Of a DNA stretch of 64,000 bases, positions 16,626 through 58,337 are shown in pieces (the first letter of the stretch is position 1; every line of letters starts with the position of its first letter). The translations under genes were made by a program, and so were the position numbers. Below the pieces are notes generated by a model. The model was not told the DNA's origin. It saw only the letters and a list, made by a program, of their open reading frames with translations, and did not search any database. Source of the stretch: Escherichia coli 042 (GTDB taxonomy: Bacteria; Pseudomonadota; Gammaproteobacteria; Enterobacterales; Enterobacteriaceae); NCBI RefSeq assembly GCF_000027125.1, contig NC_017626.1. One strand, given 5' to 3'.

Positions 16626-16648
16626 CAAGGGAGATAGCTCCCTTTTGG
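16626..16648 (-). terminator. Hairpin downstream of gyrA, candidate terminator
   Basis: GGGAG-ATAG-CTCCC stem-loop flanked by T/A runs. Confidence 0.4.
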
Positions 16649-16663
16649 CATGAAGAAGTAAAA

Positions 16664-19291
16664 TTATTCTTCTTCTGGCTCGTCGTCAACGTCCACTTCC
16701 GGAGCGATTTCATCGTCCCCTTCCGCGGCACTGCCGTCGATGGTATCCAGATCTTCCTCGTCAACCGGTTCAGCAACACGTTGCAGACCCACTACGTTTT
16801 CATCTTCCGCAGTACGGATGAGGATCACGCCCTGGGTGTTACGGCCCACGATGCTGATTTCCGAAACGCGAGTACGTACCAGCGTACCGGCATCGGTGAT
16901 CATCATGATCTGGTCGCAGTCATCTACCTGCACCGCGCCAACCACTAAACCGTTACGTTCGGTAACCTTGATGGAGATAACCCCTTTCGTCGCACGCGAC
17001 TTAGTCGGGTATTCCGCCACTGCGGTACGTTTACCATAACCGTTCTGCGTTGCGGTGAGGATTGCGCCATCGCCACGAGGCACGATCAGAGAGACGACTT
17101 TATCGCCTTCGCCTAAACGAATACCGCGAACACCGGTGGTGTTGCAGCCCATCGCACGGACAGAAGACTCTTTAAAGCGCACCACTTTACCTTCGGCGGA
17201 GAACAGCATTACTTCGTCTTCGCCGCTGGTCAGGTCAACGCCGATCAGCTCATCGCCTTCAACCAGTTTGATCGCCACTTTACCGGCGGTACGCAGACGG
17301 TTGAACTCGGTGAGGACAGTTTTCTTCACGGTACCGTTAGCGGTCGCCATGAAGACTTTCACGCCCTCTTCAAACTCGGTCACCGGCAGGATGGCAGTGA
17401 TACGTTCGTCCTGCTCCAGCGGCAGCAGGTTGACGATCGGACGACCGCGCGCGCCACGAGTGGCTTCCGGCAACTGATAGACTTTCATCGAATAGACGCG
17501 ACCACGGCTGGAGAAGCACAGAATATGGTCGTGGGTGTTCGCCACCAGCAGTCGGTCGATAAAGTCTTCTTCTTTAATACGTGCGGCAGATTTACCTTTC
17601 CCGCCACGACGCTGCGCTTCGTATTCAGAAAGCGGCTGATACTTCACGTAGCCCTGGTGAGAGAGCGTCACGACCACATCTTCCTGAGTGATCAGATCTT
17701 CCAGGTTGATGTCGGCGCTGTTGGCGGTGATTTCAGTGCGACGTTTGTCACCGAACTGTTCACGAACCAGTTCCAGCTCTTCGCGGATCACTTCCATCAG
17801 ACGATCGGCACTGCCAAGAATACGCAGCAGTTCTGCGATCTGATCCAGCAGCTCTTTGTATTCGTCGAGCAGTTTTTCATGCTCAAGGCCGGTCAGTTTC
17901 TGCAAACGCAGATCCAGAATCGCCTGAGCTTGCTGTTCGGTCAGGTAGTACAGACCATCACGCACGCCGAACTCTGGCTCCAGCCATTCCGGACGCGCAG
18001 CATCGTCGCCCGCACGTTCCAGCATGGCGGCAACGTTGCCCAGCTGCCACGGATTAGCAACCAGCGCAGTTTTCGCTTCTGCAGGCGTCGGCGCATGACG
18101 GATCAGTTCGATGATCGGGTCGATGTTCGCCAGCGCCACGGCTAATGCTTCAAGGATATGAGCACGATCGCGAGCTTTACGCAGTTCGAAAATAGTACGA
18201 CGGGTCACCACTTCACGGCGGTGACGAACAAACGCCGCGATGATGTCTTTCAGGTTCATGATCTTCGGCTGACCATGGTGCAATGCCACCATGTTGATAC
18301 CGAAAGAAACCTGCAACTGGGTCTGGGAGTAGAGGTTGTTAAGCACAACTTCACCGACCGCGTCGCGTTTCACTTCAATCACGATGCGCATACCGTCTTT
18401 GTCAGACTCGTCACGCAGCGCGCTGATGCCTTCCACGCGTTTTTCTTTTACCAGTTCCGCAATCTTCTCGATCAGGCGCGCTTTGTTTACCTGATACGGA
18501 ATTTCGTGGACGATAATGGTTTCACGTCCGGTTTTTGCGTCAACTTCCACTTCGGCACGGGCGCGGATATATACCTTGCCACGACCGGTACGGTAAGCTT
18601 CTTCAATACCGCGACGACCGTTAATGATTGCCGCCGTCGGGAAGTCCGGCCCCGGGATGTGTTCCATCAGCCCTTCAATGCTGATGTCTTCATCATCGAT
18701 ATACGCCAGACAACCGTTGATGACTTCCGTCAGGTTGTGCGGCGGGATGTTGGTTGCCATACCTACGGCGATACCGGAAGAACCGTTCACCAGCAGGTTA
18801 GGAATTTTGGTTGGCATGACGTCGGGAATTTTTTCCGTGCCGTCATAGTTATCAACGAAATCGACCGTCTCTTTTTCGAGATCGGCCATCAGTTCATGGG
18901 CAATTTTCGCCAGACGGATTTCCGTATAACGCATTGCCGCCGCAGAGTCGCCGTCGATGGAACCGAAGTTACCCTGACCGTCTACCAGCATGTAACGCAG
19001 CGAGAATGGCTGCGCCATACGGACGATCGTGTCATAAACCGCCGAGTCACCATGGGGATGGTATTTACCGATTACGTCACCAACGACACGGGCAGATTTT
19101 TTATAGGCTTTGTTCCAGTCATTGCCTAGTACGTTCATGGCGTAAAGTACGCGACGGTGTACCGGCTTCAGGCCATCTCGGACATCCGGCAGCGCACGGC
19201 CAACAATGACCGACATCGCATAATCCAGATAGGAGCTCTTCAGCTCTTCCTCAATGTTGACCGGTGTAATTTCTCTCGCAAGGTCGCTCAT
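16664..19291 (-). CDS. gyrA: DNA gyrase subunit A
   Basis: 875 aa; active-site region AAMRYTE; QRDR reads GDSAVYD (Ser83 TCG, Asp87 GAC). Confidence 0.97.
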
Positions 19292-19437
19292 CTAACCGCT
19301 ATCCCTCTACTGTATCCCGGATTCAAAGGTCGCAAATTATAACACAGCCGCGCAGTTTGAGGTAAACCTATACGCTTTATTCACATCCAATGCCTGATAT
19401 ACTCGTTTGTCTTGCCAATTACGGAGTAGAAGTGCCA

Positions 19438-26949: not shown

Positions 26950-27155
<206 letters not shown>

Positions 27156-43078: not shown

Positions 43079-44800
43079 GCCCTGAAGAACGTGGATCCCT
43101 GCTACGTTCAGGCTGTCGCCTGAATCATTTCGGTGGGTTCCTGCTTCAACGAGCGGCCTGACTGCACCATCTCTCCACAGGCAAGAACGGCGTGCCCCGC
43201 CGCTAAAATGTTACGAGCGCCATTTACATCGGCGTTCGCTGTATATCCACATACCTGGCATCTGAATTGACTTTGTGACAGGCGATTTTCTTTCGCAGTA
43301 TGACCACAGCACGCGCAACGCTGGCTTGTGTACGCTGGCGGAACAGCAAGCAACTGACCGCCACTCCAGAGCTGCTTGTACTCAAGCTGGCGGCGCATTT
43401 CATACCAGCCCTGATCCAGTATCGAACGGTTTAAACCTGATTTTGCCCGGACATTGCGCCCCGGCTGGCTGAGCGTACCCGCTGCTGACTTTGACATGTT
43501 GCTGACCTTCAAATCCTCAATGACTATCATTGCGTGGTTTTTGCTGACGGTCGTTGTGACTTTGTGAAGGTAGTCCCTGCGGATATTTGCGATACGGGAA
43601 TGCAGTCGCTGTATTTTGCGTTTCTGCTTCTGCCAGTTGTTGCTGAATTTGACCCTGCGGCTTAACTGTCGCTGAAGTCTCGCCAGCTTCTTCTGGTTTT
43701 TCTGAAAACTGTTTACAGGCTCAAAGACTGTGCCATCTGACAGCGTGGCGAGTTTAGCCACGCCAGCATCCAGCCCGACCATTGATGCTGAAGGGTGAAC
43801 CGGAGTTGATACTTCACTTTCTGTCTGAATACTGATGTACCACTTACCGCAGGACTGGCTGACAGTGACATTTTTTACAACACCCGTGACCTGACGGCTG
43901 TTCCGGTAGCGCATCCAGCCCAGTTTCGGCAGAAAAATACGGCTGTTTTCCTGATCGAGCTTAACGCCCTGCGGATAGCGGAATGCATCATTCTGTCCCC
44001 GCTTTTTGAATCGGGGAAAAGCAGCCCGATTCTGGAAGAAGTTTTTGTAAGCCCGCTCAAGGTCTTTCAGTGACTGTTGCAATGGCTGTGAGGGCGAATC
44101 TTTAAGCCATTGCGTTTCAGTGGCGTTTTTCCACTCAACCAGCCAGGAAGCCATTTTCCCGTAAGGGATGTATTTATTACCGGCCTCATGATTCTCATTC
44201 TGAAGCGCCAGAGCGCGATTGAAAACGAAACGACATGCGCCTGCGAAGCGCCTCATTTCACACTCCTGTTGACCACCTGGTCTTAACTGGAATTTAAATG
44301 CCTGTAATCGTTTCACAGGTCAAATGATACTTTGGTCTATGAAAAAAGAAACCGATATCCGGCGTGGAAGGCATTGTGTTTTCCTGATGCATGTTCACCT
44401 GGTCTTTGTCACCAAATACCGACGCCAGATTTTTGACCATGACGCGACAGAAAAACTACGCACTTACTTTTCAAATGTATGTGCTGATTTTGAAGCTGAA
44501 CTGGTTGAAATGGATGGCGAACCAGATCACGTCCATTTGTTAATTAACTATCCTCCCAAACTGGCGATATCCAGTCTGGTAAACAGCCTCAAAGGCGTAT
44601 CGGGTAGGTTACTGCGACGAGATCGACCAGATATTGCAGTCAGGTATTACTACAAAGGCGTTTTGTGGAGTCCTGGCTATTTTGCCAGTAGCTGCGGAGG
44701 TGCGCCAATATCCGTCATCCGCCAATACATTGAACAACAGCAAACACCTGGTCAGGTGGAAAACCGCGCCTTATATCCCCGCCCTGAAGGACGGGGTTTT
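43070..44800. mobile_element. IS200/IS605-family insertion sequence (divergent tnpA and tnpB); boundaries approximate
   Basis: Y1 (HUH) transposase plus TnpB ORFs; 14-bp near-identical motif CGCCCTGAAG[A/G]ACG in direct orientation at both ends (43078-43091 and 44780-44793), each within a hairpin. Confidence 0.7.
43108..44316 (-). CDS. tnpB: TnpB (OrfB) RuvC-like transposon-associated nuclease
   Basis: 402 aa; C-terminal zinc finger CACCGH...CQVCG and RuvC-like motifs typical of IS605 OrfB. Confidence 0.88.
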
Positions 44801-50412: not shown

Positions 50413-50413
<1 letters not shown>

Positions 50414-52395
50414 TGAAAACCGTCGTTTTTGCCTACCACGATATGGGATGCCTCGGTATTGAAGCCCTGCTGGCTGCCGGTTACGAAATTAGCGCCATTT
50501 TTACCCATACCGATAATCCCGGTGAAAAAGCCTTTTATGGTTCGGTGGCTCGTCTGGCGGCGGAAAGAGGCATTCCGGTTTATGCGCCGGATAACGTTAA
50601 TCATCCGCTGTGGGTGGAACGTATTGCCCAACTCTCACCAGAGGTGATTTTCTCTTTTTATTATCGCCATCTTATTTGCGACGAGATTTTGCAGCTCGCT
50701 CCCGCAGGTGCATTTAATCTGCATGGTTCGCTGTTACCAAAATATCGTGGTCGCGCGCCGCTGAACTGGGTGCTGGTGAACGGTGAAACGGAAACTGGCG
50801 TTACATTGCACCGAATGGTGAAACGTGCCGATGCCGGGGCCATTGTGGCGCAACTGCGCATTGCCATTGCGCCAGACGATATCGCCATTACGCTGCATCA
50901 TAAGTTATGTCATGCCGCGCGCCAGCTACTGGAGCAGACATTACCCACCATTAAACACGGTAATATTCTGGAAATCGCCCAGCGCGAAAACGAAGCCACC
51001 TGTTTTGGTCGCAGAACACCGGAAGACAGTTTCCTCGAATGGCATAAACCGGCATCCGTGCTGCACAACATGGTGCGTGCCGTTGCCGATCCGTGGCCGG
51101 GTGCCTTCAGCTATGTTGGTAATCAGAAATTTACCGTCTGGTCGTCACGCGTGCATTCTCATGCGCCTGCAGCACAGCCGGGGAGCGTGATTTCTGTAGC
51201 GCCACTGCTGATTGCCTGTGGCGATGGCGCGCTGGAAATCGTCACCGGACAGGCGGGCGACGGCATTACTATGCAGGGCTCGCAATTAGCGCAGACGCTG
51301 GGCCTGGTGCAAGGTTCACGCTTGAATAGCCAGCCTGCCTGCACCGCCCGACGCCGTACCCGGGTACTCATCCTCGGGGTGAATGGCTTTATTGGCAACC
51401 ATCTGACAGAACGCCTGCTGCGCGAAGATCATTATGAAGTTTACGGTCTGGATATTGGCAGCGATGCGATAAGCCGTTTTCTGAATCATCCGCATTTTCA
51501 CTTTGTCGAAGGCGATATCAGTATTCATTCCGAATGGATTGAGTATCACGTCAAAAAATGTGATGTCGTCTTGCCGCTGGTGGCGATAGCCACGCCGATT
51601 GAATATACCCGCAACCCACTGCGCGTATTTGAACTCGATTTTGAAGAGAATCTACGCATTATCCGCTACTGCGTGAAGTACCGTAAGCGAATCATCTTCC
51701 CGTCGACTTCAGAAGTTTATGGGATGTGTAGCGATAAATACTTCGATGAGGACCATTCTAATTTAATCGTCGGCCCGGTGAATAAACCACGCTGGATTTA
51801 TTCGGTGTCTAAACAATTACTTGATCGAGTGATCTGGGCCTATGGCGAAAAAGAGGGTTTACAGTTCACCCTCTTCCGCCCGTTTAACTGGATGGGGCCA
51901 CGACTGGATAACCTTAATGCAGCGCGAATTGGCAGCTCCCGCGCTATTACGCAACTCATTCTCAATCTGGTAGAAGGTTCACCGATTAAGCTGATTGATG
52001 GCGGAAAACAAAAACGCTGCTTTACTGATATTCGCGATGGTATCGAGGCGTTATACCGCATCATCGAAAATGCGGGAAATCGCTGCGACGGCGAAATTAT
52101 CAACATTGGCAATCCTGATAACGAAGCGAGCATTGAGGAACTGGGCGAGATGCTGCTGGCGAGCTTCGAAAAACATCCGCTGCGCCATCACTTCCCACCG
52201 TTTGCGGGCTTTCGCGTTGTCGAAAGTAGCAGCTACTACGGCAAAGGATATCAGGACGTAGAGCATCGTAAACCAAGCATCCGCAATGCCCGCCGCTGCC
52301 TGGACTGGGAGCCGAAAATTGATATGCAGGAAACCATCGACGAAACGCTGGATTTCTTCCTGCGCACCGTTGATCTTACGGATAAACCATCATGA
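50413..52395 (+). CDS. arnA: Bifunctional UDP-glucuronate decarboxylase / UDP-Ara4N formyltransferase
   Basis: 660 aa; N-terminal formyltransferase, C-terminal SDR ([10 protein letters not shown]). Confidence 0.95.
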
Positions 52396-54934: not shown

Positions 54935-55266
54935 TCTGGCTAACATTAGTCTTTGCCAGCTTGCTTAGCGTTGCCGGGCAGTTGTGTCAGAAACAAGCAA
55001 CCTGCTTTGTGGCGATAAACATACGGCGCAAACATATCGTGCAGTGGCTGGGACTGGCGCTGGCTTGTCTTGGCCTTGCCATGGTGCTCTGGCTGCTGGT
55101 CTTGCAGAACGTACCGGTAGGCATTGCCTACCCGATGTTAAGTCTGAATTTTGTCTGGGTGACGCTGGCTGCAGTAAAACTGTGGCACGAGCCGGTATCA
55201 CTGCGTCACTGGTGTGGGGTGGCGTTCATTATTGGCGGCATTGTGATCCTCGGGAGTACGGTGTAA
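54931..55266 (+). CDS. arnE: Ara4N-undecaprenyl-phosphate flippase subunit ArnE
   Basis: 111-aa SMR-like 4-TM protein. Confidence 0.9.
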
Positions 55267-55652
55267 TGGGCCTGATGTGGGGATTATTCAGCGTCATTAT
55301 TGCCTCAGCTGCGCAATTAAGCCTGGGTTATGCGGCGAGTCATCTACCGCCGATGACGCACTTATGGGATTTTATCGCGGCGCTGTTAGCTTTTGGCCTG
55401 GATGCCCGGATACTGTTACTCGGGCTGCTGGGTTATCTGCTTTCCGTTTTTTGTTGGTATAAAACGCTACATAAACTTGCGTTAAGCAAAGCCTATGCCT
55501 TGCTCAGTATGAGCTATGTGCTGGTATGGATTGCATCAATGATACTTCCCGGCTGGGAAGGAACTTTTTCGCTGAAGGCACTACTGGGAGTTGCTTGTAT
55601 TATGAGCGGGTTGATGTTGATTTTCCTGCCCACGACAAAACAACGTTACTGA
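55266..55652 (+). CDS. arnF: Ara4N-undecaprenyl-phosphate flippase subunit ArnF
   Basis: 128 aa from [10 protein letters not shown]; start overlaps arnE stop. Confidence 0.9.
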
Positions 55653-55912
55653 GTTTTCCCTGCCGCTGTACACTGCCGTTCCCACTCATCGGGGCTATAA
55701 CTGCTTGCCGAGAGGACTTTCACCGTATGCAGCTTTTCACGATTAATACAATAAAGCGCATTCTGCAAAGGTGAGAGTAAATCCCCCACTTTCACGGCGA
55801 AGTCACTCTTCACTTCGGCGATCATTTTTATCGCGCCGCCAGCATCGCAGAGCATAAGTACATGTCTGTTATCTTGTTTATTGCAGCACGATTTTTTGAC
55901 CAGCCATTCCAT
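55646..55912 (-). CDS. pmrD: Signal transduction connector PmrD
   Basis: 88 aa from [19 protein letters not shown]. Confidence 0.9.
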
Positions 55913-56021: not shown

Positions 56022-57377
56022 TTATTGCTGGCGTTGCACCCACTCTTTTAGCGCCTGACGTGAAATTTTAATACCGCCGTTTTTCAGCTCCGGCGGCAGA
56101 GTTAGCCAGCGCACCGGTTGTTGAAAACGAGCCAGCTTATCTTTCACCCATTCGTCAAGATCAACGGTTTGCTGGTCATACTCCACCACCGCTACCGGCC
56201 GATGACCAAACTCCTTGTCGGCAACGGGAACGATAAACACCTGCAAAACTGCAGGATGTGCAGCAATAACACGCTCGACTTCTTCCGGCTGAATACCCTC
56301 ACCGCCACTGAAGAACAGATTATCTAAACGTCCGACAATGGTCAGCTTGCCATTATGCATCTCACCGCGATCGCGCGTGGCGTACCAGCCTTCGTCATTA
56401 ATCAGTGGAACCAGTTGCCCGTTACGCCAGTAACCTTCTGCCATACTGGCAGCCCGCAGCCACACTTCATCATTAACGATTTTCACTTCCCGCCCCGGCA
56501 GCGGCGAACCGACGTCCGCCAGGCCGTCGGCTTCTTTCGCACACACCGTGGAGGCAAACTCGGTCAGACCATAGCCGCAAAAGCAACGAATCCCCTGCTC
56601 GCGCGCCTGTTCCGTCAACTCGACCGGGATAGCCGCACCGCCAAGTAACACCGCTTTCAGGGAAACGGAACTGCGGTTAACCAGCAAACGCCAGAGTTGT
56701 GTTGGCACCAGTGAAGCGTGAGTACAGCCTGCCAGCATTTGCTCCAATGGCTGTTTATCACGTACCGTCATCCGCGCGCCAGCGTATAACCAGCGCCACA
56801 TAATTCCCTGGCCGGAGACGTGAAACAGCGGTAAAGAGAGCAACCAGTCATCGTGCTCGCCAAACGGTATCAGCGATAACACACCTTGCGCACTGGCAAG
56901 ATGGGCCTGATAAGTATGAACAGCGGCTTTCGGCAAACCGGTAGAGCCGGAGGTCAACGTCATTGAGCACAGACGCGTCGGCTGCCACGCAGCGGCATGT
57001 GCGCCTTCAACCAGCTGAATGTGCAGCGACGTTAACGCCGGAAACGTGTTTTCCCCATCCGGCACCAGCGCAAATTGCAGCGTCAGATTGGGGAGCAATT
57101 CCTCAAGTAACGGTTGCGGCAGCTGTGGATTCACGGGCAGCACCCGCGCCCCGCATTGCAGTAACGCCAGCCAGGCCAGCAGCGTTTGCGGCGAATTCCA
57201 CGCCCGCAACATCACGCCGCTGCCCTCAACAACGCCCTGCGCCGCAAAGCCGGAGGCTAATTCATCGACGCGAGCACAAAGCTCGCGCCAGTTAAGTTGC
57301 TCGTCATTAAGACGTAAGGCGATGGCTTCTCCCCGCACTTGCCGCCAGTGACGCCACGGCCAGTCAGAGAAGATCAT
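56022..57377 (-). CDS. menE: o-Succinylbenzoate-CoA ligase
   Basis: 451 aa; AMP-binding motif [10 protein letters not shown]. Confidence 0.95.
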
Positions 57378-58337
57378 AACAGCCGCTCCAGTGCATCAAC
57401 TTCCACTAACGGTAGCGGGCTACCCGGCCAGCGACGAACCTGCTGCGCCTGCATCAGATCCAGCGTGTCCAGCCCCGGAATGGTGTCTGGCGTTAACCAG
57501 GCGGCAATCCGCGCCAGTTGCGTTAAGCCTAAGCTCGACTCAATAGAAGAACTGATCACCGCCGTCAGCCCCAACGCGTGCGCTGCCTGTACCTGCTCGC
57601 GTACTTTTTCCAGACTGCCCGTGAGCGTGGGTTTGATAACTACCGCGCGCACGCCCTCTTCAGCCACAAAGGCAAAATCCGGCTCGCGCAGGCTTTCATC
57701 CCAGGCAATGGCAATGCCGGTTTCACGGGCAAACGCACGCGAATCATCGCGGGTTTTGCACGGTTCTTCGAGAAACGCGATGCGGTGGCGATAATCCGGG
57801 TTAACGTATTTGGCAAACTGCTGGCCTTTCAGCGGTGTCCAGGCGCGATTCGCGTCAAGACGCAAATGCAGATCCGGAATTGCCTCCAGCAACAGATTAA
57901 CCACCATGCCGTCGCGCACCGCTTCGTACAATCCCACTTTGACCTTCGCCACTTTCTCGCCTGGCATATCGGCAAGTTTCAGGATCAGATCGTCAGGATC
58001 GCCATTACACAGTGGTGCCGCACGGTAATTGGCCGCCCGCGGGAGCGTGTCTGCCAGCTCCGCCAATGCACAGCTTATGCCAAAGGCGACGGAAGGCATT
58101 TGCGGTAATTCGCAATCGCCTGCCAGCCAGTTATTTACCCAGGCAAGCAGCACACTTTGCGCCTCTTCCCAGGTTTCCTGACTAAAGCCCGGCAGTGGGG
58201 AGATCTCCCCCCCACCCTTCACGCTCGCCCTCACGCAGGCAAACGTACAGCCCGTCGCGGGTTTTTAACCGCCTGTCGCGCAGAACCACCCCCGCGTCCA
58301 TGGGGATCTGCCAGCGGTATACCTGCGCGCTACGCAT
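57374..58337 (-). pseudogene. menC: o-Succinylbenzoate synthase menC with apparent +1 frameshift in a C7 (coding-strand G7) run at 58207-58213
   Basis: N-terminal 51 codons ([14 protein letters not shown]...EGWG) and C-terminal 286-codon ORF (GEISPLPGF...) lie in different frames; span is 964 nt, not a multiple of 3. Confidence 0.8.

Follow-up and report, generated by a model that had tools for sequence, protein, structure and literature searches.

Wild-type codons 83-87 of gyrA in a 64-kb window of the Escherichia coli chromosome

The stretch at 19031-19045 of the 64-kb window (the whole stretch of DNA that was analysed) is almost certainly codons 83-87 of a wild-type E. coli gyrA, in which both quinolone anchor residues are intact, the enzyme is expected to be drug-sensitive and D678E is the sole protein change relative to K-12. 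A preliminary description of this DNA had read codon 83 as TCG (Ser) and codon 87 as GAC (Asp) within GDSAVYD and had concluded that the two canonical GyrA positions carry no substitution. A minus-strand read and the codon table agree with this reading, and Ser83 and Asp87 are wild type, as is the whole QRDR. No sequence in the window contradicts a wild-type gyrA. The finding holds, is fully accounted for and is ordinary, D678E and the gene, like its residues and their mechanism, having all been documented before; the state is that of a conserved essential gene, for which chance is not the relevant question.

The gyrA gene and its resistance codons

The sole long ORF in the ORF list that covers codons 83-87 is the minus-strand frame of gyrA (Table 1). 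The whole window protein scores 1309.7 bits against the NCBIfam equivalog TIGR01063 (gyrA), above its cut-off of 877, and 1258.7 against NF004043, with a cut-off of 902. In Pfam it matches PF00521, the breakage-reunion domain, over residues 32-507 (E = 6.7e-163), together with six PF03989 repeats that form the C-terminal blades. Its N-terminal breakage-reunion domain includes the catalytic tyrosine, its C-terminal beta-pinwheel has six blades and carries the GyrA box, and an acidic C-terminal tail is present. Tyr122 is the active-site residue of E. coli GyrA that becomes covalently linked to cleaved DNA, and the GyrA box is the C-terminal-domain motif that separates GyrA from ParC and has a role in DNA wrapping and supercoiling. 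Identity at 874 of 875 residues to the enzyme in PDB 6rks suggests that the window's GyrA would carry out negative supercoiling with GyrB. At the DNA level, gyrA is matched in 5,425 of the 5,426 complete E. coli genomes and is 100% identical to the annotated gyrA of E. coli CB6837 and ECA64, two independent complete genomes with which the stretch agrees base for base; in CB6837 the neighbours of the gene, yfaA and ubiG, are also the same as in the window.

Table 1. Coordinates of gyrA features and of other elements in the window
Feature	Position	Strand	Content and basis
gyrA CDS, DNA gyrase subunit A	16664..19291	minus	875 codons + stop; ORF list and translation
Codons 83-87	19031..19045	minus	TCG GCG GTT TAT GAC = Ser-Ala-Val-Tyr-Asp; minus-strand read of 19100..18980 and codon table
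QRDR, codons 67-106	18974..19093	minus	amino acids identical to reference GyrA
Catalytic tyrosine, codon 122	18926..18928	minus	TAT; codon indexing from ATG
GyrA box, residues 560-566	17594..17614	minus	QRRGGKG; motif search in protein
Codon 678	17258..17260	minus	GAA (Glu); only amino-acid difference from K-12 reference (Asp); C-terminal domain
Perfect extended -10 element	19336..19344	minus	TGTTATAAT; 45-53 bases upstream of gyrA ATG
Terminator-like hairpin	16627..16644	minus	weak T tract; 20 bases 3' of gyrA stop codon; pattern scan
naRNA4 (RF02564)	26999-27069	minus	82.3 bits; nrdA-nrdB spacer
MFS transporter gene adjoining inaA	29345-30535	minus	CAG to TAG at codon 292 of 396 (29660-29662)
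LysR-family regulator gene	30687-31424	plus	483-bp deletion, junction 31421|31422
tnpB, IS200/IS605 family	43108-44316	minus	402 aa, intact
tnpA, truncated	44324-44749	plus	beside tnpB
arnA	50413-52395		three compensating indels relative to CB6837
arnF, pmrD	55266-55912
menC (o-succinylbenzoate synthase)	57374-58337	minus	7 G against 6 in CB6837 and Ecol_316, G-run 58205-58217

Translation places GDSAVYD at GyrA residues 81-87, with codon 83 at 19043-19045 and codon 87 at 19031-19033. Since GyrA equals the reference except for D678E, the full QRDR, defined as residues 67-106 (PMC9953508), is wild type. Relative to the K-12-type allele it holds three silent nucleotide differences, at codons 85 (GTT/GTC), 91 (CGT/CGC) and 100 (TAC/TAT). 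The positions sometimes linked to resistance, 51, 67, 81, 82, 84, 106, 119 and 196, all have reference residues. With Ser83 and Asp87 in place and no substitution in 67-106 or at 51, 119 or 196, the genotype is that of a wild-type QRDR in a consensus sequence, where a minority resistant subpopulation could go unseen at codons 83-87.

According to published work, quinolones would enter the DNA gate cleaved by gyrase and block its religation. Ser83 and Asp87 would lie on helix alpha-4, beside the cleaved gate, and two of the waters of the Mg2+ chelated by the quinolone's C3/C4 keto-acid would hydrogen-bond to these residues. Both residues have been described as anchors of this water-metal ion bridge in E. 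coli gyrase, the bridge serving mainly to position the drug (PMC9917921). With Ser83 and Asp87 intact, the cleavage complex would hold the drug in its correct position, and full drug sensitivity of the enzyme would be expected. A single transition separates each of the window's two codons from its canonical resistance form, TCG to TTG giving S83L and GAC to AAC giving D87N.

Upstream of the gene, a perfect extended -10 element (Table 1) was read by eye in the 60 bases 5' of the start codon and is likely the -10 of the gyrA promoter, an assignment that we take from prior knowledge. A two-hexamer promoter scan made no gyrA promoter call, because there is no good -35 at this place. The hairpin 3' of gyrA is a consensus match only, and the pattern scan found no more hairpins in the region than expected from shuffled sequence.

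Alternative readings of the gene and of D678E

An offset in the numbering, or a gene that is in fact the paralogue parC, would mean that the residues called 83 and 87 lie elsewhere than at the canonical GyrA positions, and we give this reading practically no chance of being right. Partial matches of the protein to ParC families are strong, as paralogy predicts, but the score against the Gram-negative type of topoisomerase IV subunit A (ParC; parC_Gneg, TIGR01062) is 581.5 bits, below the cut-off of 628.9, whereas the gyrA cut-off is exceeded, as the preliminary assignment to gyrA would have it. Moreover, the GyrA box, which is absent from ParC, is present, and the neighbours ubiG and yfaA are those of gyrA. 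The preliminary description had itself raised the possibility that its codon numbers were offset, and the numbering stands, anchored in three ways. The gyrA ATG at 19289-19291 is directly preceded by an in-frame TAG, and therefore the protein has no longer N-terminus and its numbering is not offset; it aligns with the solved E. coli GyrA of PDB 6rks from 1-875 to 1-875 with zero gaps and the single mismatch D678E; and the tyrosine falls in register at 122. Both parC identity and shifted numbering were rejected on the upstream stop, the gapless alignment, the family cut-offs and the GyrA box.

With the gene taken as gyrA in its canonical numbering, resistance could still come from a rarer gyrA substitution (A51V, A67S, G81C/D, D82G, A84P, Q106H, A119E or A196E) or from D678E itself, which we consider highly improbable. 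The named positions are all reference, and the whole protein differs at 678 only, a residue that established structural knowledge places in the DNA-wrapping C-terminal domain, distant from the drug pocket. Isolate tables sometimes list D678E beside resistance mutations, but in a Thai isolate series the change follows sequence type (ST405, ST38, ST448, ST1193), with or without QRDR mutations, in the manner of a lineage marker (PMC10638923). In a pan-genome genotype-phenotype study with MG1655 as reference, the D678E-only gyrA allele is among the susceptibility-associated features, with 1 resistant and 152 susceptible genomes (PMC7067475, Table 3). Because of these counts and of its tracking with sequence type, D678E is treated here as neutral for quinolones, a lineage polymorphism in the C-terminal beta-pinwheel. 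It is also unlikely, although the chance is a real one, that quinolone susceptibility is reduced in spite of the wild-type QRDR by determinants outside the window, namely qnr, aac(6')-Ib-cr, qepA or oqxAB, efflux up-regulation through marR, acrR or soxR, or changes in gyrB, parC or parE. None of these loci lies in the window, and one of the 153 genomes of this allele class is phenotypically resistant. However, the other 152 are susceptible (PMC7067475), and gyrase is the primary quinolone target in E. coli, so that high-level resistance without a gyrA change is uncommon. The gene lists of the 64-kb window contain no parC, in line with the preliminary caveat that it lies elsewhere, and no parE, gyrB, efflux regulator or plasmid quinolone-resistance gene; the window therefore informs on gyrA only and not on the susceptibility of the strain.

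Frequency of the genotype in complete genomes

The wild-type reading of codons 83-87 was placed in its population context with exact 30-mers, placed so that all of their 28-base seed words span these codons, which were queried against 5,426 complete E. coli genomes. A match means exact identity over codons 83-87. Three genotypes (wild type, S83L and S83L+D87N) were each written both with GTT and with GTC as codon 85, which gives six query versions (Table 2).

Table 2. States of codons 83-87 among 5,426 complete E. coli genomes
State	GTT at codon 85	GTC at codon 85	Total	Share
Wild type	2,013	639	2,652	48.9%
S83L + D87N	1,371	331	1,702	31.4%
S83L alone	413	72	485	8.9%
Unclassified by the 30-mers			587	10.8%

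The six 30-mers classify 4,839 of the 5,426 genomes, and the wild type is the commonest single state over codons 83-87 in this clinically biased collection. The unclassified genomes could hold other substitutions (D87G/Y, S83A) or further silent variants, or include the lone genome with no gyrA match. One plasmid-labelled record in the collection carries a gyrA copy, and the S83L+D87N 30-mer hit a single plasmid place, which may or may not be in that record; in a few genomes gyrA occurs at two places. Such cases could stem from mislabelled replicons, from assembly artefacts or from real duplication.

Mutations in gyrA are the first step of target-mediated fluoroquinolone resistance and are nearly always found in clinically resistant E. 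coli isolates. For annotators and resistance pipelines, the result means that this is a genome without such first-step mutations in gyrA, a point of small practical value. It brings no new biology, the state being common to about half of complete E. coli genomes.

Chromosomal surroundings and comparison with known alleles

From atoS to elaA, the window is ordinary E. coli chromosome with colinear gene order. The gene order runs atoS (partial), atoC, atoDAEB, yfaP, yfaQ, an alpha-2-macroglobulin gene, yfaT, yfaA, gyrA, ubiG, yfaL and ypaB; then nrdAB, yfaE, inaA, an MFS/LysR gene pair, glpQ, glpT, glpABC, rpnE, yfaU and yfaV; and finally an IS200/IS605 remnant, yfaY, yfaZ, nudI, ais, arnBCADTEF, pmrD, menECBHDF, elaB and elaA. 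Against its two best relatives the window shows a mosaic of identity, which breaks near 6 kb, 15-16 kb, 22 kb, 45 kb and 59 kb. CB6837 is matched without a difference over 1-6 kb and 16-44 kb, and Ecol_316 exactly or almost exactly over 22-59 kb, while the blocks at 6-15 kb (atoB, yfaP, yfaQ and the alpha-2-macroglobulin gene) and 59-63 kb (menH, menD, menF) are 1-5% off both. Homologous recombination in E. coli typically leaves such a pattern.

Several genes away from gyrA are disrupted in the window relative to CB6837 and Ecol_316. In menC, one extra G in a homopolymer run, the only difference from Ecol_316 within its kilobase, causes a +1 frameshift beyond about codon 42, with a stop at residue 51; either menaquinone synthesis was lost recently or the extra base is a sequencing error in the homopolymer. 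The nonsense codon in the MFS transporter gene is private to the window, and the deletion in the LysR-family regulator gene removes its final 48 codons and part of the downstream spacer, so that neither gene of this divergent pair is intact. The three private disruptive changes are either real or assembly errors. Between yfaV and yfaY, where rhmD (yfaW) and rhmR (yfaX) presumably sit on the K-12 map, the window holds an intact tnpB (InsQ/TnpB RNA-guided endonuclease) beside a truncated tnpA, an arrangement common to CB6837 and Ecol_316. The arn/pmrD polymyxin-modification region is 2-5% off CB6837 and identical to Ecol_316, and no disruption of it was seen. An RNA scan found no tRNAs in the window, and at the Rfam gathering threshold there was nothing beyond naRNA4, a repeat-derived nucleoid-associated RNA element.

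Compared with named alleles, the window's GyrA has the same length (875 aa) as that of K-12 (PDB 6rks/6rku/6rkv/6rkw; WP_001281242.1 in ER1709) and 874/875 residues in common with it, among them the entire QRDR, Tyr122, the GyrA box and the acidic tail of the C-terminus; K-12 has Asp678 where the window has Glu678. The K-12-type gyrA of ER1709 differs from the window's at 46 nucleotides (1.75%), of which 45 are silent. The protein is identical to WP_001281251.1, found in CB6837, ECA64, M7424, 2017C-4173W12, WP8-S17-ESBL-12 and TUM20902, and in the strains beyond CB6837 and ECA64 the gyrA DNA is 99.9% identical by BLAST. That these 99.9% relatives might be resistant point mutants was rejected for the four examined, which share WP_001281251.1 and whose differences are therefore silent. 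In CB6837 the DNA flanking gyrA diverges from the window by 1-5% in several blocks, and therefore the window is not strain CB6837.

Ecol_316, whose GyrA (WP_001281225.1) has a fluoroquinolone-resistance genotype, carries gyrA in the chromosomal context seen in the window. Its gyrA (16784-19411 in its compared locus) differs from the window's at 27 positions, which are S83L (TCG to TTG, nt 248), D87N (GAC to AAC, nt 259), Asp678 and 24 silent changes. Given the silent differences and Asp678, the Ecol_316 gene represents another allele backbone and not a point-mutated copy of the window's. Neither gene is K-12-like (46 differences for the window and 52 for Ecol_316), and an import of the resistant allele from a K-12-like source was rejected on the latter count. 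The identity between the window and Ecol_316 breaks inside yfaL, about 3 kb from gyrA, and the combination of some 37 kb of neighbouring identity with 27 differences in gyrA suggests that one of the two lineages had its gyrA allele replaced. We raise tentatively, as a possibility somewhat short of an even chance, that fluoroquinolone resistance or susceptibility changed in this lineage through homologous replacement of the gyrA segment and not through point mutation, in either direction. A more distant comparison is offered by E. coli ParC, which has a homologous breakage-reunion domain with the equivalent bridge anchors Ser80 and Glu84 (PMC9917921 and established knowledge); the window protein is set apart from it by its score against parC_Gneg, its GyrA box, its six C-terminal blades and its position at the gyrA locus.
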